Source of the DNA: Candidatus Methylomirabilota bacterium | Lineage (GTDB): Bacteria; Methylomirabilota; Methylomirabilia; Rokubacteriales; CSP1-6 | Reading direction: 5' to 3' | Assembly: GCA_036002345.1 (NCBI GenBank) | Contig: DASYTM010000060.1 | Location: forward strand, 1-19,561 | DNA length: 19,561 nt | Shown: positions 1 through 17,799 of the stretch, one piece after another | Layout of the letters: each line of letters begins with the position of its first letter | Position numbering within the stretch: position 1 is the first letter of the stretch | Notes under the pieces: model-generated | The model's input: the letters and a program-made list of their open reading frames with translations, nothing else | The model's database searches: none | Told to the model about the DNA's origin: nothing | Translations under genes and position numbers: made by a program

Positions 1-1
1 G

Positions 2-226
2 GACGCGGAGCTCTTCGAGATCCTGCGCGCGCTGCGGAGGAGGGTGGCCGAAGAGCGCGGCGTGCCGCCCTACCTGATCTTCTCCGATGCGTCCCTGCGC
101 GACATGGCACGCCTGCGCCCGCGCACGCTGGACGAGTTCCGCGAGGTGAAGGGCGTCGGCGACTGGAAGCTCGAGACGTTCGGCGACCGCTTCCTGACCG
201 CGGTGCGCCAGGCGGTCGCGGGCTAA
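2..226 (+). CDS. recQ: RecQ-family DNA helicase, C-terminal HRDC domain (partial; 5' end lies outside the window)
   Basis: The frame is open from the window edge. The translation DAELFEILRALRRRVAEERGVPPYLIFSDASLRDMARLRPRTLDEFREVKGVGDWKLETFGDRFL matches the HRDC pattern (VPPYxIFSDxxLxxMA ... GVGxxKxxxFG). TAA stop at 224-226. Confidence 0.8.
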   Translation, partial: DAELFEILRALRRRVAEERGVPPYLIFSDASLRDMARLRPRTLDEFREVKGVGDWKLETFGDRFLTAVRQAVAG

Positions 227-1101
227 CGGCCCTCGTCGGCCGCGCCGAGAGCGACGCCGCCGAGGATCAGCACGACCGCGACGAGCAGGGACGGGCTCGG
301 CCACTCGCCCAGCCACAGCGTGGCGACCACCACGCTGACGAGGGGCGTCGCGAGCAGGCCGAGCGAGACCGTGACGGCGGGCAGGCGCTGGCCGGCCATC
401 GCGCTGGCCCAGTACGCGAGCGCCGTCCCCGGGATTCCCGCGTAGGCGAGGAGCGCCACGAGCGTGGGCGTCGGCTCGAACACGAGCGGTCCCGCCCCGA
501 GGTAGGCGAGCGGCACCGTGATCAGGGCCGCCAGCAACATCTCCCACGGCAAGAGATCCAGCGGCGCGGACTGCCAGGCGTGACCACGGATGTGCAGGAT
601 CGCGCCCGCCCACAGGAACGCGCCGGCGAGGATCGCGACGTTGCCCCAGACCGCGCGCGGCTCCGACCAATCGAAGCCGGCGGGATTGAAGAGCACGACG
701 ACGCCGGCGAGGCCGACCGCGACGCCGAGCACGCGGCGCGCGGTGAGGCGCTCGCCGAGGAGGAGCCACGCCCCCGGCGTGACCCAGAGCGGCGTGGTGT
801 AGGCGAGCACCGCCGAGCGGCCGGCGGGAACCAGCGCGAGCCCGATGCTGGTGAGCACGGTGAAGCCGACCATGTGGAGCAGCGTGATCGTGAGCATCAC
901 GGGCAGGTCGGCGCGCGGCGGCAGGACGAGGCGCCCGCGCAGGATCGCCAGCGCGAAGAGCGCGCCGCAGCCGATCACGGTGCGCACCGCCACCGCCCAT
1001 ACCGGGGACATGGCGGCCACGATGACCTTGTTGATGGGCCAGGTGAGGCCCCACGCGAAGACGACCGTGACGAGGAGCGCGACGCCGGCGCGCCGCGACA
1101 C
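223..1101 (-). CDS. EamA/DMT-family permease (drug/metabolite transporter), 292 aa
   Basis: This is the C-terminal 292 aa of the 789-aa track ORF. It is highly hydrophobic with two EamA-like halves (GVALLVTVVFAWGLTWPINK..., ...GIPGTALAYWASAMAGQRLPAVTVSLGLLATPLVSVVVATLWLGE). I place the start at GTG 1101-1099, 11 nt after the MFS stop (TGA 1115-1113). Upstream of that point the ORF becomes Arg/Ala/Pro read-through in a different frame from the MFS gene. Confidence 0.85.
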   Translation of the reverse strand: MSRRAGVALLVTVVFAWGLTWPINKVIVAAMSPVWAVAVRTVIGCGALFALAILRGRLVLPPRADLPVMLTITLLHMVGFTVLTSIGLALVPAGRSAVLAYTTPLWVTPGAWLLLGERLTARRVLGVAVGLAGVVVLFNPAGFDWSEPRAVWGNVAILAGAFLWAGAILHIRGHAWQSAPLDLLPWEMLLAALITVPLAYLGAGPLVFEPTPTLVALLAYAGIPGTALAYWASAMAGQRLPAVTVSLGLLATPLVSVVVATLWLGEWPSPSLLVAVVLILGGVALGAADEGR

Positions 1102-1112
1102 GACGGACGGCG

Positions 1113-2408
1113 TCAGGACGCCCAGGGGCTCGGCTGGGCCGCGCGCGCGGCGAGCGCCTCGCGCTCGAGCCAGCTCACGGCCAGCGGCACGACGAGCAGG
1201 ACGGCGCCGACCGCGTTCAGCGCGCCGAAGCCCCACGCGCCGAGCACCACGCCGCCGAGCGCGCTGCCGACCGCGCCCATGAGGCCCATGACGAGGTCGG
1301 CGAGGCCCTGGATCGACGCGCGCTCTTCGGGTGAGAGCGCGTCGGTGAGGAGCGCGCTGGCGGAGACGAACGCCAGGTTCCAGCCGATGCCGTTGAGGCA
1401 GAGCCCGGCGAGCACGAGCCCGCTCGCGCTGCCCGGAGGCAGCCCGGCCAGCCCCAGCGCCAGCAGCAGCACGAGGCCGCCGGCGCCGATGATGGGCAGC
1501 CGGCCGAAGCGGTCGCAGAGCCAGCCCGAGAGCGGCGAGGTGATGTACATGCCGCCCAGGTGGAACGAGACGGCGAGGCCGATCGTCTGCACGCCGTGCC
1601 CGTGGTCGTGGAGGTAGAGCGGCGAGGTGGACGTGGTGCCGATCATCACGAGCTGGCTCACCATCAGCGTGCCGTAGGCCACGAACACGCGCGGCTCGCG
1701 CAGGATCGCGCCGAGCGCGCGGGCGGGACGGGCGGCGCCGCGCGCGGCGGCGGGCGCCTCGAGCTGGCGCGCGATCGCGAGCGGATCGGGCCGCAGGAGC
1801 GCCTGCACGAGCACGGCGGCGAGGGCGAACGCGGCGAGCGAGATCAGGAACGCGCTCGCCACGCTTCCCAGCCCGAGGGCCGCGCCCGCGCTGACGGCGG
1901 GCGTCATGAGCATGGGCCCGACGATGGAGCCGGCCGCCGAGCCCCAGACGATCAACCCCATCGCCCGGCCGCGCTGCGCGCCGGGGCTGATGTCGGCCGC
2001 CGCGTAGCGCGCGAGCAGGTTCGACGTCTGCGCGGTGCCGAAGAGGGCCATGCCCACGAGGAAGAGCAGGAAGCTCTTCTGGACCACGCCGAGCATCGCG
2101 AGCCCGGCGCCGGCGACGGCGAGCGCGTAGCCGACCGTGAGGCCGGGACGGCGCCCGAAACGCGCCATGAGCCGGGAGAGCGGATAGGCCGCCAGGGCCG
2201 TGCCGAGCGAGCCGATCCCGACGGGCACCCCGGACCACGTGTTGGTGCCGGTGATGGCGGCGGCCATGATGGCGCCGACGGCCATGGTCATGGAGAACCC
2301 GGTGCTGCCGCAGACCTGGGCCGCGAAGAGCGTCACCATGAGCGCGCCGCGCCGGCGCAGCGCGGCGCCGGCGGGCGAGGGGAGCGAAGTCACGCCGACA
2401 TAGTACAC
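1113..2408 (-). CDS. MFS transporter, 431 aa
   Basis: About 12 hydrophobic segments. An MFS loop 2-3 type motif is present (PLSRLMARFGRRPG; compare the D/G-R-x-G-R-R signature). GTG start at 2408 lies 12 nt after the upstream stop. Alternative starts are GTG 2393 and ATG 2339. Confidence 0.85.
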   Translation of the reverse strand: MYYVGVTSLPSPAGAALRRRGALMVTLFAAQVCGSTGFSMTMAVGAIMAAAITGTNTWSGVPVGIGSLGTALAAYPLSRLMARFGRRPGLTVGYALAVAGAGLAMLGVVQKSFLLFLVGMALFGTAQTSNLLARYAAADISPGAQRGRAMGLIVWGSAAGSIVGPMLMTPAVSAGAALGLGSVASAFLISLAAFALAAVLVQALLRPDPLAIARQLEAPAAARGAARPARALGAILREPRVFVAYGTLMVSQLVMIGTTSTSPLYLHDHGHGVQTIGLAVSFHLGGMYITSPLSGWLCDRFGRLPIIGAGGLVLLLALGLAGLPPGSASGLVLAGLCLNGIGWNLAFVSASALLTDALSPEERASIQGLADLVMGLMGAVGSALGGVVLGAWGFGALNAVGAVLLVVPLAVSWLEREALAARAAQPSPWAS

Positions 2409-2420
2409 ACAGCGCCCGCT

Positions 2421-3380
2421 CTACAGCGAGCGCGTGAGCCGCAGGAGATCGACGACACCGCGGATCGAGAGGGGCCGGGCGGCGAGATACTCGCGCTCGC
2501 ATAGGTCCGGGCCCCACTTGAGCTTGTAGCGGGCCTGGCTCGTGGCGGGATAGATCATGCTGCCGTGCCGTCCGAGCTGACGGATCAGCCACGCGGCGAG
2601 GCGGCTCGCGCCCGGTGGCTCGTCGCCGCCGACGATGAACGGCGTGAATCCGAAGTGCAGGAAGGGTGTGCCGTCGGCGCGCATGCGCTCGATGGCGTGG
2701 GCGTTCGTGAGCTCGATGGCGCCCGCGGGAGCGTCGGGCCGGCGCCGCGTGAGGTCGTGGAGGTAGCCCGGGGTCGTTCCCCAGACGGGGACGTACGTGA
2801 TGAATGCGACGGGGTGACCCCCGCCATCCAGCGCTGCGAACACGCGCCGCTGCGCGTCCTCGGGATGGCCCAGCTCCCCGACCATGAAGTCGAGCTCGTG
2901 ATGGCGCTTGGCCTCGAGCCAGCGCGCGCTGACGCCCGCCAGCGCGGCGAAGCTCCGTTCGTCACGCGGGACGTCGCGGCCCAGCTCGACGACGCGCAGG
3001 CCGGCGCGTCGCGCACGGCTGATCTTGTTGCGGAGCTGCATCTTGTCGCCGCCGCCCAGGCTGAAGCGCTCGAGGCCGAGCCCGAAGCTCGTGCCGAGCG
3101 CGTTCACGCGGAAGCCGCGCCCGCGAAACAGCTCCACCTGCGGCTCGCGGACCTGCACGGCGATGGCGCCGCGGCCGCGCGCGGTGGCGTGCGCCACGAA
3201 GTGATCCAGGAGCGGGCCGCGCGCCGCGGGCGGAGCGTGCACGCCGCCGAAGGCGACGAGGTGCCGGCCCTGCTCGCGGTAGGCGATGAAGCCCGGCGTT
3301 CCGTCGAGGGTGAGGCGGGCGTTGCGCGACGAAAGGGCGAGGAATCCCGACGGATGATCGACGAGCGCCGCGGCGTCCAC
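2421..3380 (-). CDS. Stand-alone DUF2156 / phosphatidylglycerol-lysyltransferase C-terminal-like domain protein (aminoacyl-tRNA-dependent transferase family, MprF-C / VlmA-like), 319 aa
   Basis: The sequence follows the DUF2156 pattern: FIAYREQGRHLVAFGG..., ERFSLGGGDKMQLRNKISRARRAGLRVVEL, HELDFMVGEL, VAFITYVPVWG..GYLHDLTRRRPDAPAGAIELTNAHAIERMRADGTPFLHFGFTPF. No N-terminal flippase or TM domain is present. The start is GTG 3380-3378, 2 nt after the upstream TAG (3385-3383). The 64 aa before it in the track ORF are Arg-rich read-through. Confidence 0.8.
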   Translation of the reverse strand: MDAAALVDHPSGFLALSSRNARLTLDGTPGFIAYREQGRHLVAFGGVHAPPAARGPLLDHFVAHATARGRGAIAVQVREPQVELFRGRGFRVNALGTSFGLGLERFSLGGGDKMQLRNKISRARRAGLRVVELGRDVPRDERSFAALAGVSARWLEAKRHHELDFMVGELGHPEDAQRRVFAALDGGGHPVAFITYVPVWGTTPGYLHDLTRRRPDAPAGAIELTNAHAIERMRADGTPFLHFGFTPFIVGGDEPPGASRLAAWLIRQLGRHGSMIYPATSQARYKLKWGPDLCEREYLAARPLSIRGVVDLLRLTRSL

Positions 3381-3382
3381 GG

Positions 3383-4711
3383 CTAGCCCAGACGGTCCAG
3401 GAGCGCCATGCCGCGCACCGTGGCCTGAAATCCGAGCCAGCGCAGCGGCTCCAGGGGCAGGAGCGGCGGATCGTCGCGAAACCAGGGCAGATCCTCGGGA
3501 ACGGCGCCGTCGCACAGGATGGACGCGATCCACGCGCCGGAAGCGACCGACAGCGCGACGCCGTGCCCGCACCAGCCGACCGCGTGCAGCACGGACGGAC
3601 GGCCGCGCAGCCGCTGGATCGCCGGGAGGCCGTCGAGCACGTAGTCGATCACGCCCGTCCAGCCGCCGGCCACCGGCGGCGCGACGGCGCCGAACGTCCG
3701 CCGGAGCTCGCCGGCGAGCGCGTCGAGGGCGGCGGCGCCGCGGCCGTCGTCCTCGGCGCCGCCGCCCCAGCGATATCGGGGCGCGCCCCCGCCGAAGACG
3801 ATGCGGTCGTCGGCGGTGAGGCGCGCGTAGCTGAAGATCCGGCGCGCGTCGAGCAGCGCCTCGCGACCCTTCCAGCCGAGCGCGTCGCGCGCGCCGTGGT
3901 CGAGCGGCGCCGTCACGAGCACCTGGAGATGCACGGGCAGGACGCGGCCGTGAAGGAGGCCGAGCCCCGGTGTATAGGCGGACGTCGCGACCACCACGTC
4001 GTCGGCGATCACGACGCGTTCACCATCGACGTCGAGGCGAACGGGCCGTCGATCTCCCAGGGCCCTGACGCGGCAGCCTTCGGCGATCGTGCCGCCGCGC
4101 GCGCTCACGCGCTCGGCAAGGCCGGCGACCAGCCGCATCGGGTGAAGCGTGCCCGCGGACGGGAGCCTGATGGCGGCGGGGCCGGCGCCGTCGTAGCGAC
4201 GCGCGCCGGGAAGACGAATCAGGCGCTCGAGCGCGTCGTCGTCGAGCATCTCCACGCCGAGGCCGAGGCGGGCATGGAGCGCGGCGAGGGCGGCGAGGCG
4301 GGCTCGGCTGGCGCGCTGTTCGCCCGCCACCGTGAGCTGGCCCGTCATCTCGAGATCGCAGGCAATCCGCTCGGCGGCCACGAGCGTCACGACGTCCTCG
4401 ACGGCACGGGTGGTGGCGAGATAGAGCGCCTTCGCGCGCGCGGGGCCGTGCCGGCGGACGAGCGCGCCGAGGGCCTGGCCGACTCCGGGACTCAGGATGC
4501 CCGTCGTGCGGCCCGAGGCGCCGGCGCCGAGGCGCCCGGCCTCGAGCACGAGCACGCGCGCGCCGGGGCGCCGCTCGAGGACGTGATAGGCGGCCGACAA
4601 CCCCGCGAAGCCGCCGCCGATCACGGCCACATCCGCGCGCGTCGTTCCCGCTGGCAGCGTCGGAAACGCGCGCCCGGCGCCGTCGGCCCACATCGGCGCG
4701 GTCGTGTTCAC
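3383..4711 (-). CDS. FAD-dependent oxidoreductase, DAO (glycine/D-amino-acid oxidase-like) family, 442 aa
   Basis: N-terminal Rossmann dinucleotide motif DVAVIGGGFAGLSAAYHVLER..VLVLEAGRLGAGASGRTTG. The C-terminal part (HAVGWCGHGVALSVASGAWIA) is typical of the DAO family. GTG start 4711-4709 overlaps the upstream TGA (4710-4708) as GTGA. ATG 4693 is an alternative start. Confidence 0.8.
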   Translation of the reverse strand: MNTTAPMWADGAGRAFPTLPAGTTRADVAVIGGGFAGLSAAYHVLERRPGARVLVLEAGRLGAGASGRTTGILSPGVGQALGALVRRHGPARAKALYLATTRAVEDVVTLVAAERIACDLEMTGQLTVAGEQRASRARLAALAALHARLGLGVEMLDDDALERLIRLPGARRYDGAGPAAIRLPSAGTLHPMRLVAGLAERVSARGGTIAEGCRVRALGDRRPVRLDVDGERVVIADDVVVATSAYTPGLGLLHGRVLPVHLQVLVTAPLDHGARDALGWKGREALLDARRIFSYARLTADDRIVFGGGAPRYRWGGGAEDDGRGAAALDALAGELRRTFGAVAPPVAGGWTGVIDYVLDGLPAIQRLRGRPSVLHAVGWCGHGVALSVASGAWIASILCDGAVPEDLPWFRDDPPLLPLEPLRWLGFQATVRGMALLDRLG

Positions 4712-5745
4712 GCCGCGGCTCGGGCGAGCGCCTGGGCGACCGCGGGCGATCGTCCCACGCGCCAGATGCGCCCGTCGACGAGGTAGTGATGAAACGCCAC
4801 GCCCCAGCCGAGGCCGATCAGGACGTTGCGCGTCAGCGTGGAGGGCGCGCTGGCGGCCCCGAGCACGCGCGCGCCGTACCACACGAGACCGAGGGCCAGG
4901 CCGAGGGCGAGATAGCGCGCCAGGCTGCCCGACGGTACGCGGCCGTGGCCGCGCTCGTAGTGCCACACGATCCGGTGGTACTGCAGATTGTGAAAGATCG
5001 TGAGGGTGGCGAGGATGGCCAGCAGGTCGTCGAGCGCCGCGAACACGACCGCGTGGAATCCGATCACGAGCGCGAGCAGGAGGTGCCGCTGGGCGAGGCG
5101 GCGCGGCTCGACGCGGCCGGAGAGGACGGTGACGAGCAGCGCCGTCATCGCCACGACGAAGCCCGCGTCGAGCGCGAGCCGCGCCAAGGGAATCAGCGCG
5201 GGCGGCGTCAGGCGAGGCAGCCCCGTGGCCGCGTAGCCGTCGGAGAGCGAGAAGCGGACGTACGGATAGAGGCAGCCGAGCCAGAGCAGCGCCGTGTCGA
5301 GCCGGGCGCCGTTCGCGTCGGCGGCGCCTTCGCGCCGCCGGTAGAGCCTCAGGAAGCCGTAGTGCTGGCGCACGAGATGCCAGTAGGCCCAGAGGTAGGC
5401 GAGCAGGAGGAACCAGGCGAACAGCCCGCCGGGCTCGGCGAGGCCGGCGTCGAGCAGCGCCACGGCGGGGCCGATCCCGAAGACCGCCCACGACCAGCGC
5501 CCGGGAAGCGCCGCGCGCGACGCGGCGTCGGGCGCCAGGTAGCTTCGCGCGTACGTGCCCCACACGTGCGTGCCGTCGAAGAGCACCCCCCACAGGAACA
5601 CCGCGAGCACGACGGCGGACGGCGGCGCCGTCACGAAGAAGGCGCACAGCGCGAGCCCGGCCACGACCCCGCCCTGAAGCCAGACCAGATCGTCGCGCCG
5701 CGAGATGATCCAGGGCCCCGACGCCGAGAGCACGCCCGCGCTCAT
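4708..5745 (-). CDS. Polytopic integral membrane protein with four conserved-looking histidine motifs (candidate membrane metallo/redox enzyme), 345 aa
   Basis: About 8 hydrophobic segments. His clusters: FDGTHVWGT, YWHLVRQHYG, FHNLQYHRIVWHYERGH, FHHYLVDGRIW. ATG 5745-5743 overlaps the upstream TGA (5744-5742) as ATGA. I do not recognise the family. The motifs do not match the canonical desaturase/AlkB HxxxH/HxxHH boxes. Confidence 0.7.
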   Translation of the reverse strand: MSAGVLSASGPWIISRRDDLVWLQGGVVAGLALCAFFVTAPPSAVVLAVFLWGVLFDGTHVWGTYARSYLAPDAASRAALPGRWSWAVFGIGPAVALLDAGLAEPGGLFAWFLLLAYLWAYWHLVRQHYGFLRLYRRREGAADANGARLDTALLWLGCLYPYVRFSLSDGYAATGLPRLTPPALIPLARLALDAGFVVAMTALLVTVLSGRVEPRRLAQRHLLLALVIGFHAVVFAALDDLLAILATLTIFHNLQYHRIVWHYERGHGRVPSGSLARYLALGLALGLVWYGARVLGAASAPSTLTRNVLIGLGWGVAFHHYLVDGRIWRVGRSPAVAQALARAAA

Positions 5746-6941
5746 GCCGGGCTCGTGGCGAAGCGGGACCACACCATGCGCTGGGCGACCCGCCCGAGCG
5801 AGGAGTTCGCCAGCCCGAAGACACCGCGGTGCAGCACGTCGGCGCCGGGGCCGCCGAGGGCGAAGCCGCAGCTCATCCAGTGCGACCAGCGGATGACGCC
5901 CGCGTTGATCGGCCTCCGCTCCCGCTCGTAGGCGTCGAGCGACCGGTCGACGTCCGTCGGGCCGGCGCCGCTCGCGAGCACGGGACCGAGGTGGCGCGCG
6001 AGCGCGGCGGCGTCCTCGATGGCCATGGTCATGCCCTGGGCCATCACGGGATTGATGACGTGGATCGCGTCGCCCAGCAGCACCGCGCCGCGCGCCGCGT
6101 AGCGCGGCGCGTGGCCGCGCCAGAGCTTGTAGAGGTGGACGCCGACGGGCGAGGCCCGGCGGCCCTCGAGCAGCGGCGAGCGATGGACGATGCGCGCGAG
6201 CTTGTCCGCCGGCGACCCGGAGCGGAAGAGCCGCTCGGCGCGCGCGTGGACGAGCGCGGCCAGCCCCAGGCGGTTCACGCCGGGGACGACGAGGATGCCG
6301 CCGTCCGGATGCAGCTCGGTGCGCAGCACGTCGGGATGTCCCGGTGGCCGATCGATGTCGACGATGAAGAGCGCGTGATCGTACGGCACGCGGGGCAGCT
6401 CGATGCCGAGGGCTCCGCGCACCTTGGACGCCGCGCCGTCGGCCCCCACGACGAGCCGGGCGCGAATCTCCTCCTCACCGCCGCGCGGCGTATCGAGGAC
6501 GACGCCGGTCACGCGGCCGCCGTCCTCGACGATGCGCGTGACGCGCCGGCCGTAGCGCATCTGCACCCGGCCCGTGGCCGCCGCGGCCTCGACGAAGACG
6601 CGTTCGATCTCGGGATGTGGAAGGACCAGATACGGATCCGTCACCCCCGGCAGCGTGAGCGGGACGTCGAGGAGCAGCCCGGCGCGATGGTGATGGAACT
6701 GCATTCGGGCCACGGTCAAGGCCCCGGCGGCGCGCACCCGGTCGAGCGCGCGCCACTCGGCGAGCAGGCGGGTGACGGGCGGCAGCAGGCTCTCGCCGCG
6801 GTTGATGTTGCCGGGGCCCTGGTGCCGGTCGATGACGAGCACGCGCAGGTCGTGCGCCCGCGCCAGCGCGAGCGCGAAGGCGGCGCCGCCGACGCCCGCC
6901 CCCACCACGATCACGTCGAACGCGGTCGTCGAATCTCGCAT
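5742..6941 (-). CDS. FAD-dependent monooxygenase (group A flavoprotein monooxygenase, UbiH/PHBH-like), 399 aa
   Basis: All three signatures are present: GxGxxG (FDVIVVGAGVGGAAFALALAR), the DG motif (LVVGADGAASKVRGALG) and the GD motif (LLGDAIHVINPVMAQGMTMAIEDAAAL). SD GGAG sits 6 nt upstream of ATG 6941. Confidence 0.85.
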   Translation of the reverse strand: MRDSTTAFDVIVVGAGVGGAAFALALARAHDLRVLVIDRHQGPGNINRGESLLPPVTRLLAEWRALDRVRAAGALTVARMQFHHHRAGLLLDVPLTLPGVTDPYLVLPHPEIERVFVEAAAATGRVQMRYGRRVTRIVEDGGRVTGVVLDTPRGGEEEIRARLVVGADGAASKVRGALGIELPRVPYDHALFIVDIDRPPGHPDVLRTELHPDGGILVVPGVNRLGLAALVHARAERLFRSGSPADKLARIVHRSPLLEGRRASPVGVHLYKLWRGHAPRYAARGAVLLGDAIHVINPVMAQGMTMAIEDAAALARHLGPVLASGAGPTDVDRSLDAYERERRPINAGVIRWSHWMSCGFALGGPGADVLHRGVFGLANSSLGRVAQRMVWSRFATSPA

Positions 6942-6954
6942 GGGCGGCTCCGGC

Positions 6955-7332
6955 TCAGGCCCGCGCCGCGAACGGCGCCGCCGAGGATTTGAACGAGTTG
7001 CCGAGCACGCCGCGGTCGCCCGAGAGGTGGATGGGCACGGCGAGCATCGCCCACTCCACGGCGCCGCACGCCAGCGCCCACAGGGCCACCGCGATCGCGG
7101 CGACGAGGTAGCAGTGCGCGAGGTTGTAGAGGCGGTGATAGGTCGGCGCGATGGGCCCGCCGCGGGCGCGCCGGGAGGCCAGGGCGCCGGGCAGGTAGCC
7201 CACCACGTCGATGAGGACGAAGGCCAGCACGAAGCGCGACCAGGCCACGTCCGGCCAGTGCGCCAGCACCAGTGCGACCAGGACGACGACGGCGCCGGCG
7301 TGCTCGGCGCGTGTCCAGCGCGTGGCGTCCAT
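6955..7332 (-). CDS. DUF4260-like small membrane protein, 125 aa
   Basis: Four hydrophobic segments. Motifs resemble DUF4260 as I remember it (FVLIDVVGYLPG, YNLAHCY, IHLSGDRGVLGNSFK versus H-x-G-x-DR-x-x-G-x-x-x-K). ATG 7332 lies 1 nt after the upstream TGA (7336-7334). Confidence 0.6.
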   Translation of the reverse strand: MDATRWTRAEHAGAVVVLVALVLAHWPDVAWSRFVLAFVLIDVVGYLPGALASRRARGGPIAPTYHRLYNLAHCYLVAAIAVALWALACGAVEWAMLAVPIHLSGDRGVLGNSFKSSAAPFAARA

Positions 7333-7333
7333 C

Positions 7334-8191
7334 TCAGTCGAGCCCCGCGCGCGCGATGAGCCGCGCGTGCTCACGCCGGATGCTGGCCTCGATGGCGGCC
7401 ACCTGGTCCTCGTAGGGCGTCTCGGCGATGAGCCGGCCCGGCGCGAGCTCCGCGCCCGCGAAGAGGGTGGGATGGAGCCGCGCGACGGCGTCGAAGAGTC
7501 CCACGAACTCCCGGATGTAGACGCTGAAGATCTCGCCCATCGCCCGCTCCGCGTCGCGACAGAGGGTCGCGACCTTTGCGCGCCGGCCGGGATCCTCGGC
7601 GAGGAGGCGGCGCACCAGGTCGGCGCCGAAGGCCACGTGGCGCGTCTCGTCGGTGAACGCGGCCCGGACGAGCCGCGCCAGGTAGGGATCGAGCGGCGCC
7701 CAGTACCGCTCTTCGTACGCGTAGAGGGGATGGGCCATGCCTTCCAGCACGAGATTCATCAGGACCATGCCCTCGATGAACGAGCCTCCGTCAGCCACCT
7801 CGTAGCAGCGGTCGATGAAGCTCCGGAGCGGAGGGATCAGGATCGGGGCCGTCGCGGCGGCGTCGTCGAGGCCGGCGGCGGCGCTGGCCGCGATGAGCCG
7901 CCGGCGGAACATCTCGTGATGCCGCGCCTCGTCCAGTGTCTGCTGGGCCGCGAAGTTCAGCGCCTCGAGCGTGGGCGCCAGGCGCGTGAGCGCGGCCGAG
8001 ACCCGCAGCGACGCGTCCTCGAAGACGACGAAGAGGGCGAGGTCGAGGCGGTGCACCTCGGCCAGCGGCGCCGAGGTCGCCACCACATCCGGCAGACCGT
8101 CTCCGAGACGGTCCAGATCCCGGCGCTCACGTGTCCACTGCCCCGCCGCGACGGTGTCAACCCAGCGTGAGATCGAAAAGTCGATCGGCAT
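7334..8191 (-). CDS. Ferritin-like di-iron carboxylate protein (four-helix-bundle oxygenase/oxidase type), 285 aa
   Basis: Ligand pattern E / ExxH / E / ExxH: FVVFEDASL, LDEARHHEMF, LVLEGMAHPLY, FTDETRHVAFG. A strong SD precedes the start (GGAGGGAGAG then ATG 8191). The upstream ATG 8206 in the track lies inside that SD. Confidence 0.8.
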   Translation of the reverse strand: MPIDFSISRWVDTVAAGQWTRERRDLDRLGDGLPDVVATSAPLAEVHRLDLALFVVFEDASLRVSAALTRLAPTLEALNFAAQQTLDEARHHEMFRRRLIAASAAAGLDDAAATAPILIPPLRSFIDRCYEVADGGSFIEGMVLMNLVLEGMAHPLYAYEERYWAPLDPYLARLVRAAFTDETRHVAFGADLVRRLLAEDPGRRAKVATLCRDAERAMGEIFSVYIREFVGLFDAVARLHPTLFAGAELAPGRLIAETPYEDQVAAIEASIRREHARLIARAGLD

Positions 8192-10628
8192 GATCTCTCC
8201 CTCCATGTCGGGACGGGACGGGAGCGCCGCGCGAGTCCGTGGGCGCGGGCGGCGCGAGGCGAAAGCCGTGCCGAGTGGCGAGCGCCATGAGGCGATCGAC
8301 GTCCCCGACGGGCACGTTGTCGCCGACGCCCCAGTCGCGCGGGTCGTGTTCGAGCGTCAGGAGGATCGTCTCCGCCAGGCAGGCGAGCTGCACGCCGTCG
8401 GGCAGGTGGCGGAGGTTGGACGGCCCGAAGCGGACGCGAGGGTCCGGCAGGGCGACGTGGCCGCCGTCGATGACCGTGAGGTCGGGCCGCCCCCGAAGAC
8501 GCGCCGAGGCGTCGGGGGGCTGGGCGACGTCGCAGACGAGCGTTCCCGGCGTGAGCGGCGCGTCGTCGAGGACGGCGCGCGCGGCGGCCGTGGCCGTGAT
8601 GACGACGTCGCAGTCCGCGAGCGCGGAGAGGCCGGTCGTGACGGCGACGCGGTTGCCGTCCCGCGCGAGCTCGCGGCGCAGGTGCTCGAGCCCGGCCACT
8701 CCCGTGGCAGGATTGCCGACGAGCACGAGCCCGCGCGGCCGCTCGCGCGCGATCAAGCGCGCGCAGAGGGCGCCGACCGAGCCCCGCGCGCCCACGATCG
8801 CCACGCGCGCGTCGCCGAGGGCCAGGCACAGCGCGCGGCCCGTCCGGATCGTCGCGGCGACGGCCATGCCGGCCGTGAGGGTATTGCCGGTCGTGATGGC
8901 CGGGCCTCGGCCCACGACAGCAAGGCCGCGGCGGCTGTAGGGCGCGGTGTAGCCGCCGAGGCCGACGCGGCGTACGCCGAGACGCGCGGCGAGATCGACG
9001 GCGTGCGCGATCTCTTCGCTCATGCGCCGCAGGCCCCGCCGCGCCATCTGCTCGGGGAGGAGCGGCAGCGCGATCACGATGCCGTCCGCGACGGCGCCCG
9101 TCCGCGAGCGGATGGTCGGGGCGGCCATCACCACGCCGGCGGGCAGCGCGGACGTGAAGGCGCACAAGCGCCGTCGCTCCACGGCGGTCAGGGTGGCCAG
9201 GCCGGGATCGGCGGCCGCCACGTCGTCGGGCTCGGTGAGGTGCACGAGGAACGCGTACGCGGGCCGCGGCTCGTTCGCGCTTCGCGCGGGCGGCAGCCCG
9301 GCCGGGCGCGACGCGTCGTCGGGGGCGACGGAGGGGCCCTCGTCGAGGGCGCCGATGCCGCGCACGATCGTCTCGACCGCGTTGGCTTCGAGACGCCGGC
9401 AGACGTCGCCGAGGCGCGCCACGGCGAGATCGAGCTCGTCGTCGGAGACCACGAGCGGCGGCGTCACGCGGAGGACGTGCGCGTCGCCCAGCGCGGGCAG
9501 GACGAGCACCGAGGCAGTCTCCGCCAGCGTCGCGGCGACGGCATAGGCGTGGAGTCCCTGGTGATCGAGGAACGAGAGCACGCCCCCGGCGCCTCGATCG
9601 GGGCCGCGGAGCTCGATGGCGGTCAGCAGGCCCACCCCGCGCACGGCGGCGATGGTGTCGGGGTAGCGCCGGGCGAGGTCGGCGAGGCCGGCCTGCAGGC
9701 GCGCGCCCTTTCGCGCGGCGGCCTCGGCGAGGCCGCCGGCCGTGAGCGCCTCGAGGACGGCGAGTCCCACGCGGCAGGCGACGTTGTTGTTGGCGAACGT
9801 CGAGGAGTGGCGCAGCGCGAAGGTGTCGTCCCACACGGCGGCGGAGGCGAGGCAGGCGCCGAGCGGAAAGAGCCCGCCACCGAGGGCCTTGGCCACCAGA
9901 AGCACGTCGGGCGCGACGCCCTCGTGCTCGCAGGCGAAGAGTCGCCCCGTTCGCCCGAGGCCCGTCTGGATCTCGTCGACGACGAGCGGGACGCCGTAGC
10001 GCGAGCACAGCTCGCGCGCGCGCCGTAGATAGCCGGCCGGCGGCAGGTGGACGCCCCGCTCGCCCTGCACGGGCTCCACGAAGAATGCGGCGATGCGATC
10101 ACCGTCCCGGGCAAGGCGGCCGGCCAGCGCCGCGGCATCGCCGAACGGGACGCGCTCGAAGCCGCCGGGCAGCGGGCCGAAGCCGGCCGCGTGATGGGGC
10201 TGTCCGGTGGCGGCGAGTGCGCCGAGGGTCTTGCCATGGAAGGAGCCATCGGCGGAGAGGATGATGGGACGGCCCGTGCGCGCGCGCACGAGCTTGATGG
10301 CGGCTTCGATCGCCTCCGCGCCCGACGTGGTGAACACGCAGTGCGTGAGCCGGCCCGGGGCCACTCGGGCGAGCGCGTCCGCCAGCGCCTCGGCGTGGGG
10401 GGCGCGATAGGGCTGCACCATGGCCGGCTCGCCGGCCGCGAGGGCCGCCTGGGCCGCGCGGGTCACGCACGGCGCGTTGTGGCCGAGGGCGACGGCGCCG
10501 TACTGCGCGTAGCAGTCGAGGAAGCGCCGCCCGTGCGCATCGGTCAGCCAGACGCCGTCGCCGTGGACCCACGTGCGGTTCATGCCGAGGAGCCCGAGGA
10601 GCCGGCCGAGCGTCGGATTGAGGGTCAT
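8157..10628 (-). CDS. Bifunctional fusion of a class-III PLP aminotransferase (aa 1 to about 425) and a long-chain acyl-ACP reductase (AAR)-like NAD(P)H domain (aa about 457-790), 823 aa
   Basis: N-terminal half: FTTSGAEAIEAAIKLVR, FFVEPVQGERG, VVDEIQTGLGRTG, and a PLP lysine in LLVAKALGGG. C-terminal half aligns block by block with cyanobacterial AAR as I remember it. The blocks (this protein / AAR) are YAFLVHLTEP / FGLIGHLTS, GLGGYTAP / ALGGFTSI, ITTGNTLTAG / FTTGNTHTAY, VAIVGARGSVGALCARL / VAVVGATGDIGSAVCRWL, LACLAETILLTLEH / MFACFAEAMLLEFEG (catalytic Cys retained), and ALATRHGF / ASVRHGF. ATG 10628-10626 overlaps the upstream TGA as ATGA. Confidence 0.85.
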   Translation of the reverse strand: MTLNPTLGRLLGLLGMNRTWVHGDGVWLTDAHGRRFLDCYAQYGAVALGHNAPCVTRAAQAALAAGEPAMVQPYRAPHAEALADALARVAPGRLTHCVFTTSGAEAIEAAIKLVRARTGRPIILSADGSFHGKTLGALAATGQPHHAAGFGPLPGGFERVPFGDAAALAGRLARDGDRIAAFFVEPVQGERGVHLPPAGYLRRARELCSRYGVPLVVDEIQTGLGRTGRLFACEHEGVAPDVLLVAKALGGGLFPLGACLASAAVWDDTFALRHSSTFANNNVACRVGLAVLEALTAGGLAEAAARKGARLQAGLADLARRYPDTIAAVRGVGLLTAIELRGPDRGAGGVLSFLDHQGLHAYAVAATLAETASVLVLPALGDAHVLRVTPPLVVSDDELDLAVARLGDVCRRLEANAVETIVRGIGALDEGPSVAPDDASRPAGLPPARSANEPRPAYAFLVHLTEPDDVAAADPGLATLTAVERRRLCAFTSALPAGVVMAAPTIRSRTGAVADGIVIALPLLPEQMARRGLRRMSEEIAHAVDLAARLGVRRVGLGGYTAPYSRRGLAVVGRGPAITTGNTLTAGMAVAATIRTGRALCLALGDARVAIVGARGSVGALCARLIARERPRGLVLVGNPATGVAGLEHLRRELARDGNRVAVTTGLSALADCDVVITATAAARAVLDDAPLTPGTLVCDVAQPPDASARLRGRPDLTVIDGGHVALPDPRVRFGPSNLRHLPDGVQLACLAETILLTLEHDPRDWGVGDNVPVGDVDRLMALATRHGFRLAPPAPTDSRGAPVPSRHGGRDHADRLFDLTLG

Positions 10629-11374
10629 GCGTGACAGGCCTCGTGGATCCTCACGAACATGTCGCGAATCTCGCCGCTGTTCGCGGCGAGGCGGTCGGGC
10701 GTCCAGCCCCGCGTCGAAATCGCCGGCTGCACGTGGACGCGGACGGTGCCGGGCAGGGCGTTGAAGCCCCGGCCGGGATCGATGTCGCGCGGAATCTCGA
10801 TGTAGAGGGGGACGATGGGCGCGCCGAGGCTTGCGGCGAGCTGAAAGTTGTCCGCGTTGAACGGCCCGAGCCGTCCCGTGGTCACGCGCTCGCCCTCGGG
10901 GCTCAGATAGATGGAATCTCCGGTCCGCCGGAGCAGGCCCTCGGTCGCGCCGAACCACCGCGCACGCTCCGCCGGCTTCGAGGGTGGCGGCGCCCAGCGC
11001 GTTCCCATCAGCGTCGTGAAGATGCCGAGGGGCGCCATCCACCGGAGGAATCCGTCGAGATCCTGGGCGCCGACGAAGCGCGTCCTGGGCAGGCCGAGGG
11101 CGACGAGGACGAACATGTCCAGCGTCGAGCTGTGATTGGAGACGTAGACCGTCTGCGTCTCGGCGAAGGGCTCCGTCTGGTACACCTCGAGCCGCACGCC
11201 CCACATCCGGAGCACCGCGCGGCTGAGCCGCCCGGCGATGACCTCGCTGTAGAGCCGCCGCGCGGTGAACGACGTCACGACCGCGACGGCGAGCAGGAGG
11301 ACCGCGGAGATGGTCAGGAGCGCCAGCGTGGCCGCGGCCAGGAGCACCGCGCGGATGGCCCGTCCGTTCTTCAT
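10625..11374 (-). CDS. PlsC/LPLAT-family acyltransferase (1-acyl-sn-glycerol-3-phosphate acyltransferase-like), 249 aa
   Basis: N-terminal TM anchor. Acyltransferase motif I is NHSSTLD (HX4D), motif III is YLSPEGERVTTG (PEGTR-like), and motif IV-like is APIVPLYI. No SD precedes ATG 11374. GTG 11347 is an alternative start. Confidence 0.85.
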   Translation of the reverse strand: MKNGRAIRAVLLAAATLALLTISAVLLLAVAVVTSFTARRLYSEVIAGRLSRAVLRMWGVRLEVYQTEPFAETQTVYVSNHSSTLDMFVLVALGLPRTRFVGAQDLDGFLRWMAPLGIFTTLMGTRWAPPPSKPAERARWFGATEGLLRRTGDSIYLSPEGERVTTGRLGPFNADNFQLAASLGAPIVPLYIEIPRDIDPGRGFNALPGTVRVHVQPAISTRGWTPDRLAANSGEIRDMFVRIHEACHA

Positions 11375-11388
11375 GGCGTTCGCGTAAT

Positions 11389-11404
11389 GGCAGGAGGCGT
11401 GCCA
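11389..11404 (-). promoter_or_regulatory. Candidate sigma-54 (-24/-12) promoter for the acyltransferase operon
   Basis: The minus strand reads TGGCACGCCTCCTGCC, with GG-N10-GC spacing matching the consensus TGGCACG-N4-TTGCW. It is the only intergenic TGGCAC with correct spacing that I found. It lies next to a divergent sigma-54 activator gene. Caveat: the predicted TSS is only about 4-6 nt from ATG 11374. Confidence 0.45.
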
Positions 11405-11458
11405 GAGGCGGGAGTGACGCCGTGACGGCTACTTGCGACCGGCGGCGCGGCGGGCCTC

Positions 11459-11496
11459 GCCCCTGGCTGAGCATCGGATGCCAGGGGCCGTACGTT
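11459..11496. promoter_or_regulatory. Conserved palindromic box, copy A (putative activator/operator site or RNA hairpin)
   Basis: The plus strand reads gCCCCTGGCTGAGCATCGGATGCCAGGGGCcgtacgtt. It forms a perfect 9-bp stem GCCCCTGGC / GCCAGGGGC (11459-11467 / 11480-11488) around a 12-nt loop. Positions 11461-11496 match 13185-13220 at 28 of 36 positions by my hand alignment. Confidence 0.55.
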
Positions 11497-13077
11497 TTAT
11501 GCCGTGACGAGGGCCTCGCTGAATCTGCGATACGCCTCGAGCGGGTCGCCGAACTTCTGATGCCCGGCCGTGTGGTGCGCGCACGCCAGCAAGAGCGTGT
11601 CGCGGTCGTGGGCGGTGCTCGTGGCCCAGTCCTCGACGAGGCCGAGGCCGATCTCCTGGTTGTGCGGATCGTTGCCTTCCTTGACGGCGGCCAGCGCCAG
11701 CGTCGCGGCGAGCGGCGCGCGATCGTGGCCCGCCTCGAGGTAGGCGCGGACCCACGCCACGCTCTCGTTCGGCGTGAGCGCCGTCTGCGCTTCGTCGAGC
11801 CGCTCCAGCAGCGCGCCCTGCGTCAGCCCGCGCGCCGTCGCGGGCGGCCGCGTGTCGGCCTCGCCGTTGCCGGGCGTGTGGCGCGTCCAGTGCGCAGTCT
11901 GGTTGATGAACGAGCCGGCCACGTAGAGCAGCTTGAGCCGGTGCGGGTGTGTGAACGTGTCGTAGAACCACTTCAGCGTGTTCGTGTACTCGAAACCGTG
12001 GTGGGGCATGGAGAAGTTCGCCGGGCTGCCGACCTCCAGCATCACCCGCGCCGCCGCGACCTGGATCACGTCGAGGATCCGGCGCGGATCCTTGCCGGCG
12101 AGCAGCAGCGCGGTGATCTCGTGGATGTAGGCGGGCTCGGGCTCGTCGAGGACCGCCCGCGTGAGACGGTCGGCTTCCGCCGGCATCAGCGGCGCCGAGT
12201 TGGCGAGCAGGCGCTGCTCCACGAGCCTCGACGGCGAGGGCTCCATCGACGACTTCGGCTTGGCGTCGTCCTCCGCGAGGTGCATCCAGCTCACCTGGCA
12301 GGCCATCTCGTACGCGGAGTGCCAGCGCGGGCCCACCGCCATGTCGAGGGCGCCCGCGTAGAGCACGTGGTGGGCGTCGCGCCAGCCCAGCGCGTCTCCG
12401 ATCTCGATCGTCGCGCGCGCGCGGTGCGCCTTGTGCCCGGTGGTGTAGGAGCGGTTGTAGAGCATGCGGTCCTGCACGTCGATGAGGCCCGCGAAGGCGA
12501 GATGCGACAGGAGCTCACGCCGGCGGTCGGGCTCCTGGAACATCCCGAGGAACACGCGGTAGGCCTCGAGCACCTGACCGCGCTGGACCAGCGTCAGCCA
12601 GTGGTCGAGACGCTCCTCGAACGGACCCTCGAGCGTGACCGGCTCCTGGTCCGGCCAGTGCCGCTCGGGAGGCGCGATCGGCTTGTTCGGATCGCGCTTC
12701 TGACCACGCCCGCCGTAGTGGCCGGGCATCTTGCCGAGGAGCTGGTTCCACGGGTCGAGCCCCGTGGGCACGTACCAGATGGTCTGCGCGAGGGCCAGGT
12801 ACTCGAGGGCCGGCGGCAGGAGCTTGGGGAAGCGCAGGCTCGTCCGCGCGCTGAGCAGGCAGTGGTCGTTGTTGACGAAGCGCACGAAGGCGTTGTCGAT
12901 CCGCTGGTGATACGGCACGTGCGTGTACGGCGCGTGCACGCGGACCGTCTCGCGCACGATCTCCGCCCGCGGGCGCCCGGCGCGCACGAGATCGTAATAG
13001 ACGGTGCTCGCTCCGATCTGATCACGCGCGAGGATCCGCTCTTCGAGCTTGCCGTAGAGGCCGCCTGCCTGGTCCAT
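11497..13077 (-). CDS. Conserved-looking hypothetical protein, 526 aa, soluble, family not recognised
   Basis: Long ORF with balanced, non-shadow composition (W, Y, H, K, N, F present). Good SD (GGAGCGGAAGC then ATG 13077) and a TAA stop. The complementary 590-aa plus-strand ORF is Arg/Gly/Val-rich shadow. Confidence 0.7.
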   Translation of the reverse strand: MDQAGGLYGKLEERILARDQIGASTVYYDLVRAGRPRAEIVRETVRVHAPYTHVPYHQRIDNAFVRFVNNDHCLLSARTSLRFPKLLPPALEYLALAQTIWYVPTGLDPWNQLLGKMPGHYGGRGQKRDPNKPIAPPERHWPDQEPVTLEGPFEERLDHWLTLVQRGQVLEAYRVFLGMFQEPDRRRELLSHLAFAGLIDVQDRMLYNRSYTTGHKAHRARATIEIGDALGWRDAHHVLYAGALDMAVGPRWHSAYEMACQVSWMHLAEDDAKPKSSMEPSPSRLVEQRLLANSAPLMPAEADRLTRAVLDEPEPAYIHEITALLLAGKDPRRILDVIQVAAARVMLEVGSPANFSMPHHGFEYTNTLKWFYDTFTHPHRLKLLYVAGSFINQTAHWTRHTPGNGEADTRPPATARGLTQGALLERLDEAQTALTPNESVAWVRAYLEAGHDRAPLAATLALAAVKEGNDPHNQEIGLGLVEDWATSTAHDRDTLLLACAHHTAGHQKFGDPLEAYRRFSEALVTA

Positions 13078-13184
13078 GCTTCCGCTCCGGCCGTGACGAA
13101 CATTCGCCGATACCGCGTCTCGCCGCGCCGAATGATCTCACATTCGGGGCCCGCGGGCGCGAGGCGGGGGAGGGGCCGCCCCGA

Positions 13185-13220
13185 CCCCGGTTGAGCATTC
13201 AATGCCAGGGGGTGTACATT
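13185..13220. promoter_or_regulatory. Conserved palindromic box, copy B, overlapping a possible sigma-70-type promoter of the activator gene
   Basis: The plus strand reads CCCCGGTTGAGCATTCAATGCCAGGGGGTGTACATT. It shares 28/36 positions with copy A and has the same CCCC(T)GG ... CC(A)GGGG arms with a one-base bulge. Read on the plus strand it gives TTGAGC-N18-TACATT, ending 10 nt before ATG 13231. Confidence 0.5.
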
Positions 13221-13230
13221 CGTCGCCGCC

Positions 13231-14790: not shown

Positions 14791-14799
14791 GGGGAGAAA

Positions 14800-15173
14800 G
14801 AACGCCAGAGAAGATCTGTAAGCCGGGTCCTGTCCCCCGAGCGAAAAACCCAGGGCGACGGTCATTTCTCTAGGACGCCGGTTACCCGGCGTCTCGAGCG
14901 GCCGGACCCGAGAGCACGGACGGGCCGTCCGATCGCTCTCCTATTTGGCCTTGCTCCGGGTGGGGTTTGCCTAGCCGGCGCGGTCACCCGCGTCGCTGGT
15001 GAGCTCTTACCTCACCGTTTCACCCTTACCGCCTTGCGGCGGCGGTATGTTTCTGTGGCACTGTCCGTGGAGTCGCCCCCCCTGGCCGTTAGCCAGCACC
15101 CTGCCCTGCGGAGCCCGGACTTTCCTCCCGCCGTGTTGCCACGGCCGGCGACCGTCCGATCTTCTCTGGCGCA
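14800..15173 (-). ncRNA. rnpB: RNase P RNA, bacterial type A
   Basis: The minus strand contains the universal blocks GGGAGGAAAGTCCGGGCTCC, GGTAAGGGTGAAA, CCACCCGGAGCAAGGCCAAATAGG and ACAGGACCCGGCTTACAG, in E. coli M1 order. A 14-bp P1 helix is formed by 15171-15158 (CGCCAGAGAAGATC) with 14816-14803. Ends are approximate, within a few nt. Confidence 0.9.
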
Positions 15174-15179
15174 TCCATC

Positions 15180-15185
15180 AGTATA
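15180..15185 (-). promoter_or_regulatory. Candidate -10 hexamer (TATACT) for rnpB
   Basis: TATACT on the minus strand sits about 7-8 nt upstream of the first P1 nucleotide. It is an AT-rich hexamer in otherwise very GC-rich DNA. I found no convincing -35. Confidence 0.35.
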
Positions 15186-15197
15186 GCGGCGGCCGGC

Positions 15198-16100: not shown

Positions 16101-16125
16101 CCCGGGGGTACTGTAAACGGAGCGC

Positions 16126-16177
16126 GAGACCGGCGTGAACCGAGGGTGGCCTGAGATAGAGGCGCGGGGCTGCGCTC
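16126..16177 (+). repeat. 52-bp repeat, copy 1 (inverted partner at 18581-18632)
   Basis: GAGACCGGCGTGAACCGAGGGTGGCCTGAGATAGAGGCGCGGGGCTGCGCTC. It matches the reverse complement of 18581-18632 at 43 of 52 positions by hand alignment, with an identical 17-nt core GGGTGGCCTGAGATAGA (16144-16160). Confidence 0.7.
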
Positions 16178-16184
16178 GTCTCGG

Positions 16185-17789: not shown

Positions 17790-17799
17790 GAGAGGTCGG

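Follow-up and report, generated by a model that had tools for sequence, protein, structure and literature searches.

A Methylomirabilota operon with homologs of VlmA, VlmO and VlmB that is predicted to build a nitrogen-nitrogen bond on a fatty amine

The contig DASYTM010000060.1 of a Candidatus Methylomirabilota bacterium, which is an uncultured soil organism (GenBank assembly GCA_036002345.1), was analysed from position 1 to 19,561, and this whole stretch of 19,561 nucleotides is here called the window. It contains an operon of ten genes on the minus strand, located between positions 223 and 11374 and numbered g1 to g10 in the direction of transcription. The gene content suggests that the operon is probably a cluster of the valanimycin, elaiomycin and azodyrecin type, which would build a nitrogen-nitrogen (N-N) bond on a fatty amine, and its likely product is a long-chain hydrazine, azo or azoxy lipid. 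The enzyme set for aliphatic azoxy compounds consists of the N-hydroxylase VlmH/VlmR, the aminoacyl-tRNA-dependent DUF2156 protein VlmA, the small, iron-dependent and membrane-bound hydrazine synthase VlmO and the di-iron azoxy synthase VlmB, with the details for VlmO and VlmB taken from a review (PMC11705231). A fatty amine is the amine partner in azodyrecin, elaiomycin and KA57-A, and that of azodyrecin is provided by the reductase AzdP and the aminotransferase AzdQ. In the window, proteins of the VlmA, VlmO and VlmB types are encoded together in one operon, but VlmH and VlmR are not.

The ten genes are tightly coupled, as the first-pass annotation of this DNA had proposed, and both the positions of the open reading frames (ORFs) and the junctions between them came out identical when recomputed. 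From g1 to g10, the junctions measure -4 nt (ATGA, 10625-10628), -35 nt (8157-8191), +1, +13, -4 (ATGA), -4 (GTGA), +2, +12 and +11 nt. The GC content of the window is about 74%, and in the individual genes it is 0.90-0.97 at third codon positions (GC3) and 0.48-0.57 at second codon positions (GC2), a pattern which in a genome this rich in GC indicates that all ten ORFs are real coding frames. The start codons of g3 (8191 or 8206) and g4 (7332 or 7374, the latter a GTG that would extend the protein to 139 amino acids) are ambiguous, which leaves the picture of tight coupling as it was. The family labels that had been given to g1, g2, g3, g5, g7, g8, g9 and g10 are borne out by Pfam and NCBIfam profiles.

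In direct comparisons, the named Vlm, Ela and Azd sequences were represented by Streptomyces loci that carry the canonical genes. One of them, locus L073 in S. viridochromogenes, is a canonical azoxy-type cluster, in which the neighbors of the g4 relative encode a VlmA-like LPG_synthase_C protein, a VlmH-like protein with an acyl-CoA-dehydrogenase fold and a VlmB-like protein. Ketoacyl synthase (KAS) genes, a seryl-tRNA synthetase gene and a gene for a Streptomyces antibiotic regulatory protein (SARP) are also located nearby.

The VlmO-type protein is g4 (6955..7332, minus strand, 125 aa, locus tag VGT02_05520), a small integral membrane protein. Its actinobacterial relatives, from Streptomyces, Kitasatospora and others, are 42-56% identical and are encoded next to VlmA-, VlmH- and VlmB-like genes. 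Four residues, D42, H73, H102 and D106, are invariant in the alignment of the g4 family and align exactly onto D51, H82, H110 and D114 of the Streptomyces proteins. These are the residues that have been reported as essential in VlmO (PMC11705231). With the family and the catalytic residues established, g4 is predicted to be an iron-dependent hydrazine (N-N) synthase. The first-pass annotation had labelled g4 as a DUF4260 membrane protein and g6 as a poly-His membrane protein. Both are indeed membrane proteins, but the match of g4 to DUF4260 (15.2 bits, E=0.022) is under the 27-bit gathering threshold of Pfam, and g6 matches no family. A similarly weak relation to DUF4260 has been reported for Ady6. 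The second membrane protein was also considered as the VlmO counterpart, and this was ruled out, as an hhalign comparison of the g6 and g4 families gave a probability of 0.2% and it is g4 that bears the VlmO residues.

The VlmA-type protein is g8 (2421..3380, minus strand, 319 aa), a stand-alone DUF2156 (LPG_synthase_C) protein that matches PF09924 with 172 bits. It is 42.6% identical to the VlmA-like protein of L073 (214 bits, E=4.5e-72), compared to at most 58 bits for the MprF and LpiA structures in the PDB, and it reaches 70.9 bits with the NCBIfam model for MprF, which has a cut-off of 600. The LPG_synthase_C fold and the use of aminoacyl-tRNA are common to MprF, LpiA and g8. However, g8 contains the DUF2156 domain only, lacks the flippase domain with its multiple transmembrane helices, and is located in an N-N cluster. 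It is a member of the VlmA family, with a predicted activity as an aminoacyl-tRNA-dependent transferase.

The VlmB-type protein is g3 (7334..8191, minus strand, 285 aa), a ferritin-like non-heme di-iron oxidase. Its best match among solved structures is the "Putative VlmB homolog" (6d9f/8wvr), to which it aligns over the full length (E=6e-26), while the next match in the PDB, R2lox, is at 3e-6. The residues E58, E88xxH91, E150 and E182xxH185, which represent two ExxH motifs and two glutamic acids, are conserved in the alignment to 6d9f/8wvr. The identity to the VlmB-like protein of L073 is 27.5% (83 bits), and orthologs in non-actinobacterial loci are 55-85% identical. The protein is predicted to oxidise a hydrazine to the azo or azoxy level. 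A likeness to AurF and to the HamC-type enzyme of the fragin/valdiazen (ham) cluster had been noted for the di-iron protein, but it is weak: with the Pfam model for AurF, on which this judgement is based and for which the cut-off is 29.6, g3 reaches only 15.9 bits.

All three proteins are thus closer to Vlm-type proteins than to the paralogs involved in lipid homeostasis, as is evident from the structural match of g3, the four residues of g4 and the scores of g8, and on these grounds we regard them as homologs of VlmB, VlmO and VlmA. The first-pass annotation had called them functional analogs of the Vlm enzymes; the match to the pathway stands, but for g3, g4 and g8 this wording was too weak.

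The enzyme that would provide the fatty amine is g2 (8157..10628, minus strand), a class-III transaminase fused to a thioester reductase of the type found in PigE and in the reductase of acyl groups on acyl carrier protein (acyl-ACP reductase, AAR). The transaminase domain covers residues ~1-420 and matches Aminotran_3 in Pfam with 309 bits, and the thioester reductase domain covers residues ~490-800. The NCBIfam model for PigE is matched with 534 bits in two stretches, with the order of the domains swapped, and 4ppm (PigE) is the match in the PDB. On their own, the C-terminal 393 residues give full-length alignments both to the N-terminal domain of PigE (99 bits) and to the cyanobacterial acyl-ACP reductase 6jzq (63 bits, E=2e-16). 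The sequence LACLAE aligns to the catalytic cysteine motif FACFAE of AAR, with the cysteine at C750, and the lysine motif for pyridoxal phosphate (PLP) is found at K247. The fusion of an aminotransferase to an AAR-like reductase that had been proposed for this gene is thereby confirmed, with both domains and both the lysine and the cysteine in a single polypeptide, and it has a characterised precedent in TamH. In TamH, the transaminase precedes the thioester reductase, and C12-ACP is converted to the amine, dodecylamine (PMC9594044). For PigE, reduction of a thioester followed by transamination of the resulting aldehyde has been demonstrated.

The N-terminal transaminase and C-terminal reductase are common to g2 and TamH, while PigE has both domains in the opposite order and acts on a 3-acetyloctanoyl thioester. 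The window also differs from the tambjamine system of TamH in that it encodes no TamA-like adenylation-ACP partner, for which reason the acyl donor of g2 is probably an acyl-ACP or acyl-CoA from primary metabolism. Based on the homology of its domains, g2 is predicted to make a fatty amine from such a donor via the aldehyde. Its orthologs in related loci are 49-81% identical.

The N-hydroxylation step is where the operon departs from the canonical set. A tblastn search with the VlmH-like protein of L073 located this gene in nearly all actinobacterial loci, but neither in the window nor in its non-actinobacterial sister loci. Consistently, the Pfam scan of the window identified no Acyl-CoA_dh or flavin-reductase domains. 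The best candidate to stand in for VlmH/VlmR as fatty-amine N-hydroxylase is g5 (5742..6941, minus strand, 399 aa), a group A FAD-dependent monooxygenase that matches FAD_binding_3 (PF01494) with 141 bits and has 36-89% identical counterparts in non-actinobacterial loci. It is proposed for this role because its closest solved structures are those of PqsL (2x3n, 6fho, 6sw1 and 6sw2; 87.6 bits), a flavoprotein monooxygenase of group A that adds a hydroxyl to the nitrogen of a primary amine (PMC7248105). The margin of PqsL over the ring hydroxylases is small, with the second-best group A match in the PDB at 72 bits. Moreover, the substrate of PqsL is an aromatic amine, and PqsL requires externally reduced flavin.

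Relatives of the operon were sought with the alignment of the g4 family and one genome per species, and were found in 304 species genomes. The nearest match was a metagenome-assembled genome (MAG) of "Candidatus Rokuibacteriota". The ten proteins of the window were then compared by tblastn with the top 80 genome loci, which included 27 non-actinobacterial and 53 actinobacterial loci, and the neighborhoods of g4 homologs on metagenome contigs were also compared with the window proteins. All seven core genes, g2-g8, are present in 11 of the 27 non-actinobacterial loci, usually in similar order, and most of the other loci in this group are short contigs. The carriers belong to Methylomirabilota, Myxococcota, Burkholderiales/Betaproteobacteria and Binataceae (Binatota), with further cases on metagenome contigs. 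The actinobacterial loci have only g4, g8 and g3 (25-32% identity) in common with the window, and they also contain a VlmH-like gene. Neither g5 nor g6 was found in any of the 53, and the two co-occur in 18 non-actinobacterial loci. The co-occurrence that had been suggested as a check is thus observed, as the genes for the fusion, DUF2156, ferritin-like and membrane proteins accompany one another in numerous genomes of several phyla.

The clusters also vary in their accessory genes. Most of the non-actinobacterial clusters encode a DAGK_cat/YegS_C kinase of the VlmJ family, often together with genes for MMPL or APC permeases. These kinases (L001:13785-14720, L008:13715-14647, L011:15067-15996 and others) lack the MmgE/PrpD partner VlmK. 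The kinase is missing from the window and from locus L020, and both the window and its closest relative, L093, have a PlsC acyltransferase instead; the kinase and the acyltransferase may act on the same hydroxyl. In three loci from MAGs of Planctomycetota (L004:7605-15568, L017 and L021), a VlmH-like gene accompanies g2, g4, g5, g6, g8 and the DAGK kinase, but there is neither a VlmB-like g3 nor a DAO-family g7. Among the clusters with g5 and g6, the VlmH-like gene and the pair of g3 and g7 seem to be mutually exclusive. A minimal cluster is found in the cultured planctomycete Aporhodopirellula aestuarii ICT_H3.1 (NZ_JAMQBK010000032.1), where a VlmO-like domain is naturally fused to a VlmA-like DUF2156 domain in a protein of 482 amino acids (L057:9962-11410). 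It is accompanied by a 947-aa fusion of transaminase and thioester reductase, a patatin/cNMP-binding protein and a DAO enzyme, and the cluster contains no VlmB, VlmH, g5 or g6.

Taken together, these homologies suggest a pathway in which g2 would reduce a fatty acyl-ACP or acyl-CoA to the aldehyde and transaminate it to a primary fatty amine, which would then be N-hydroxylated, most likely by g5. As a member of the VlmA family, g8 would use aminoacyl-tRNA to attach an amino acid to the oxygen of the hydroxylamine. Serine is a plausible amino acid in view of the VlmJ-like kinase in most sister clusters. With its VlmO residues, g4 would rearrange the O-aminoacyl hydroxylamine to a hydrazine and thereby form the N-N bond, and g3, which has the family membership and the ligands for it, would oxidise the hydrazine through azo to azoxy. 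Tailoring could follow by g6 and g7, for example by desaturation beside the azoxy group, as by AzdT/Ady9, or by dehydrogenation. Acylation of a hydroxyl or amine by g1 and export of the lipid by g9 and g10 would complete the pathway. The Vlm homologies and the co-occurrence of the genes support the central idea of the first-pass annotation, a route from an acyl thioester via amine, N-oxygenation, aminoacylation and N-N bond formation to an azoxy or hydrazine lipid. Its description of the pathway as undescribed went too far, since the combination of a fatty amine with VlmA/O/B logic is already published for azodyrecin, elaiomycin and KA57-A, and only the architecture is uncharacterised.

Compared to the valanimycin cluster (vlm) of Streptomyces viridifaciens and Kitasatospora setae, the homologs of VlmA, VlmO and VlmB are clustered in the window too, and the predicted order of the chemistry is the same, from N-hydroxylamine to O-aminoacyl ester, hydrazine and azoxy. 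The window lacks VlmH/VlmR, the seryl-tRNA synthetase, VlmJ/VlmK and the SARP regulator. Furthermore, the amine in valanimycin comes from the decarboxylation of valine, whereas that of the window would come from a fatty acyl thioester, and the window contains g5, g6, g7 and g1 in addition, in a Methylomirabilota MAG instead of an actinomycete. The azodyrecin, elaiomycin and KA57-A clusters of Streptomyces are similar to the window in their logic, by which a long-chain fatty amine is joined to an amino acid via homologs of VlmA/O/B, and in containing a reductase, an aminotransferase and transporters. However, azodyrecin relies on a fatty acyl reductase of the NAD_binding_4 type and a separate aminotransferase, while the window has a single fusion protein of the AAR type. 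Tailoring in the azodyrecin cluster is by the membrane desaturase AzdT/Ady9, and the window has neither an FA_desaturase nor an Ady1 methyltransferase. AzdH and AzdR are missing from the window, where g5, g6, g7 and g1 are found instead. The window proteins are 25-56% identical to their actinobacterial counterparts.

The roles of the remaining core genes are less constrained. A divergent DAO-family FAD oxidoreductase is encoded by g7 (3383..4711, minus strand, 442 aa), with 195 bits to PF01266, matches below the NCBIfam cut-offs to TIGR03329 (141 bits) and pipecolate oxidase (108 bits), and weak matches in the PDB to sarcosine and glycine oxidases. Its orthologs in related loci are 42-75% identical, and some loci of Streptomyces and planctomycetes contain ~37-41% identical relatives together with the aminotransferase. 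From its family, g7 could serve as a dehydrogenase acting on the C-N or N-N bond of an amine or hydrazine. The pathways to s56-p1, triacsin and actinopyridazinone each include a DAO-type oxidoreductase by which a hydrazine intermediate is cleaved.

The His-rich polytopic membrane protein g6 (4708..5745, minus strand, 345 aa) belongs to an uncharacterised superfamily and has no match in Pfam or NCBIfam. More than 422 close homologs were found, all of them annotated as hypothetical, and an exhaustive search placed the superfamily at 1147 clusters (about 1100 at 50% identity), none of them named or matched by Pfam. Across members that are 24-38% identical, the residues H60, H123, Q127, H252, Y256 and H320 are invariant and D57, H128, Q255 and D324 nearly so. 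An AlphaFold2 model is all-helical (pLDDT 87), and a Foldseek search with it gave no match in the PDB. An assignment of function via distant relatives was abandoned, as their neighborhoods are mutually unrelated (GFO_IDH_MocA oxidoreductase; sulfatases; radical-SAM/aminotransferase) and allow no inference. We regard g6 as a putative membrane metalloenzyme, and a role as desaturase or oxidase like AzdT/Ady9 is a guess.

The outermost genes of the operon appear to be accessory. A PlsC/LPLAT-type acyltransferase is encoded by g1 (10625..11374, minus strand, 249 aa), which contains an N-terminal transmembrane helix and an HX4D motif (H81-D86) and matches PF01553 with 52 bits, in addition to weak NCBIfam matches to OlsA/PlsC. 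In the closest relative, L093, an acyltransferase gene that overlaps the fusion gene is located at the position of g1, while it is absent from the other related loci. The protein is probably an accessory enzyme for O- or N-acylation of an intermediate or the product. At the other end, g9 (1113..2408, minus strand, 431 aa) is an MFS transporter with 124 bits to MFS_1 and NCBIfam matches of the drug-efflux type, and g10 (223..1101, minus strand, 292 aa) is an EamA/DMT transporter with two repeats and 122 bits to EamA. Both are probable exporters. Neither is conserved in the related loci, which bear MMPL or APC permeases instead of g9.

Several observations weigh against an azoxy-type pathway for the operon as a whole. 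The canonical N-hydroxylase VlmH/VlmR is absent from the window. The case for g5 as its replacement consists solely in PqsL topping the group A matches (87.6 versus 72 bits). Furthermore, g6 is without an informative homolog, its distant relatives are found in unrelated contexts, and g1, g9 and g10 are not conserved beyond the closest relatives. Given the gene pattern of the planctomycete loci, the roles of g3, g5, g6 and g7 may be divided otherwise, and in the minimal planctomycete cluster, with the fusion, a DAO enzyme and VlmO::VlmA, the pathway may stop short of azoxy. Finally, for the candidate sigma-54 promoter upstream of g1, which is described below, 2.2 matches are expected by chance.

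The DAO-family enzyme g7 is the focus of one alternative, in which the N-N front end (g2, the N-hydroxylase, g8 and g4) is the same, but g7 cleaves the C-N bond beside the hydrazine and frees an alkylhydrazine or hydrazino acid. From there, g1 could acylate this product, or g3, g5 and g6 could elaborate it to another N-N group, such as a hydrazide, an azo or a diazeniumdiolate-like group. The precedents Spb39, Tri27 and Apy10, which are the DAO-family enzymes of the s56-p1, triacsin and actinopyridazinone pathways, agree with it, as does the location of g7 in the conserved core, the DAO enzyme being the sole redox enzyme in the minimal planctomycete cluster, and the PlsC acyltransferase in the window where sister clusters have a kinase. 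We nevertheless consider it unlikely, since the database similarities of g7 are to the DAO family in general only, and the operon has a conserved, bona fide VlmB-type oxidase, the only characterised role of VlmB being the conversion of hydrazine to azoxy. A different division of labor is suggested by the apparent mutual exclusion of the VlmH-like gene and the pair of g3 and g7, which sets L004, L017 and L021 apart from the other loci, and by the weak AurF match of g3. According to this proposal, g3, alone or with g7, would N-oxygenate the fatty amine in the manner of AurF and HamC, and g5 and g6 would carry out the later oxidation of the hydrazine to azo or azoxy, or a desaturation. Such a permutation of roles is less likely still, because g3 is far nearer to the structure of the VlmB homolog than to AurF, VlmB homologs accept hydrazines of varied chain length (PMC11705231), and the pattern comes from two or three independent planctomycete contigs.

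The first-pass annotation had also named a new membrane aminolipid as the competing idea. For such a lipid, which would have no N-N bond, g8 would aminoacylate the fatty amine to an amide, or a phospholipid in the way of MprF, and g1 would add an N- or O-acyl group for membrane homeostasis. The formation of amide-linked alanyl fatty amines by AzdA when N-hydroxylation is blocked would be compatible with such a product, as would the PlsC-type, OlsA-like similarity of g1 and the fact that DUF2156 is the catalytic domain of MprF. However, it offers no role for the conserved genes of the VlmO and VlmB types. In addition, a flippase domain is missing from g8, which scores far higher against the VlmA-like protein than against MprF, and g1 is outside the conserved core. 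We find this explanation very improbable and the lowest-ranking of those considered here. The assembly of an N-N bond on a fatty amine by the Vlm-type proteins, followed by oxidation by g3, remains the preferred interpretation.

Natural azoxy compounds are rare and bioactive, with cytotoxic, antifungal and antibacterial members, and nearly all of those known so far come from actinomycetes. Among published genome surveys for azoxy clusters, those that we found were confined to Streptomyces or actinobacteria. In a limited literature search, we found no paper that describes the architecture of the present operon and no characterised cluster with exactly this architecture, in agreement with what had been stated before. 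As far as we could find, the combination of a TamH-like fusion with g5, g6, g7 and a PlsC acyltransferase, without VlmH/VlmR and in a non-actinobacterial host, is new. The VlmA/VlmO/VlmB machinery has been recombined with a one-protein module for the fatty amine and other redox partners in half a dozen or more additional phyla, the majority of them uncultured. A more far-reaching interpretation, which we offer tentatively and would not call probable, is that these clusters represent a distinct lineage of N-N lipids, in which a PqsL-like enzyme with g6 has replaced VlmH/VlmR to yield new, perhaps O-acylated or phosphorylated, azoxy or hydrazine lipids that may be associated with the cell envelope. 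As part of the same joint interpretation, the lineage would be widespread, with hosts in uncultured and Gram-negative phyla of soil, namely Methylomirabilota/Rokubacteria, Myxococcota, Planctomycetota, Burkholderiales, Binatota and Acidobacteriota. If so, g6 would become the first member with a function in a large superfamily of membrane metalloenzymes that are rich in histidine and lack any annotation, and the lipids could be envelope-associated instead of classical secreted antibiotics.

The operon thus offers a concrete target for the discovery of new N-N lipids, a pointer to a candidate alternative amine N-hydroxylase and a first functional handle on the large "dark" family of g6. The natural variants, which include the VlmO::VlmA fusion, the clusters without VlmB and the swap of kinase and acyltransferase, should be useful for studies of the mechanism of the membrane-bound hydrazine synthase.

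Upstream of g1, a tentative sigma-54 (-24/-12) promoter candidate, TGGCACGCCTCCTGCC, is located at 11389..11404 on the minus strand and ends 15 nt upstream of the ATG. No other site in the window matches TGGCACGNNNNTTGCW with at most two mismatches, and the GG-N10-GC spacing of the candidate is correct. Based on this motif, expression of the operon may be sigma-54-dependent. Further upstream is a 526-aa ORF for a His-rich soluble protein (g0; 11497-13077, minus strand, GC3 0.94), which has no match in Pfam, NCBIfam or the PDB. It is divergent from a gene for a sigma-54-dependent activator (13231-14790, plus strand), with 159 bits to Sigma54_activat and 203 bits, below the cut-off, to an RtcR-like NCBIfam model. 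The first-pass annotation had suggested an expression construct that reaches to 13077, with or without the activator. Membership of these two genes in the cluster was rejected, because neither the 526-aa ORF nor the activator gene is conserved with the cluster in any related locus, including the closest, L093.

A 43-nt element is present in two copies that are 77% identical, at 11454-11496 and 13178-13220. One copy precedes the start of g1 by ~100 nt, and the other precedes that of the 526-aa ORF by ~120 nt. The element contains the imperfect palindrome CCCCTGGCAT...ATGCTCA..CC.GGGG (minus strand) and may be a binding site for a regulator. The two TGGCAT...TGCTCA motifs in these elements were considered as sigma-54 promoters and rejected, as the spacing from GG to GC is 8 nt and not 10 nt.

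The remainder of the window contains features of other kinds. The 3' end of an HRDC-domain gene, corresponding to the C-terminus of a RecQ-type helicase, is located at 2-226 on the plus strand and is convergent with the end of the operon. On the other side, a full-length class A RNase P RNA (Rfam RF00010, 317 bits) is encoded at 14803-15167 on the minus strand. It is followed at 15198-17237 (minus strand) by small genes, among them a 300-aa ORF without a family match, a gene for a DoxX membrane protein (16185-16637) and a CarboxypepD_reg/PEGA gene (16668-17237), that are unrelated to the cluster. A tRNA-Met (CAT) gene is located at 18649-18721 on the minus strand, where the GC content falls to ~0.65. 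It has a CT398-like/zinc-ribbon gene (17800-18594) on one side and, on the other, a gene of the sigma-70 family (18740-19492) whose product contains regions 2, 3 and 4.

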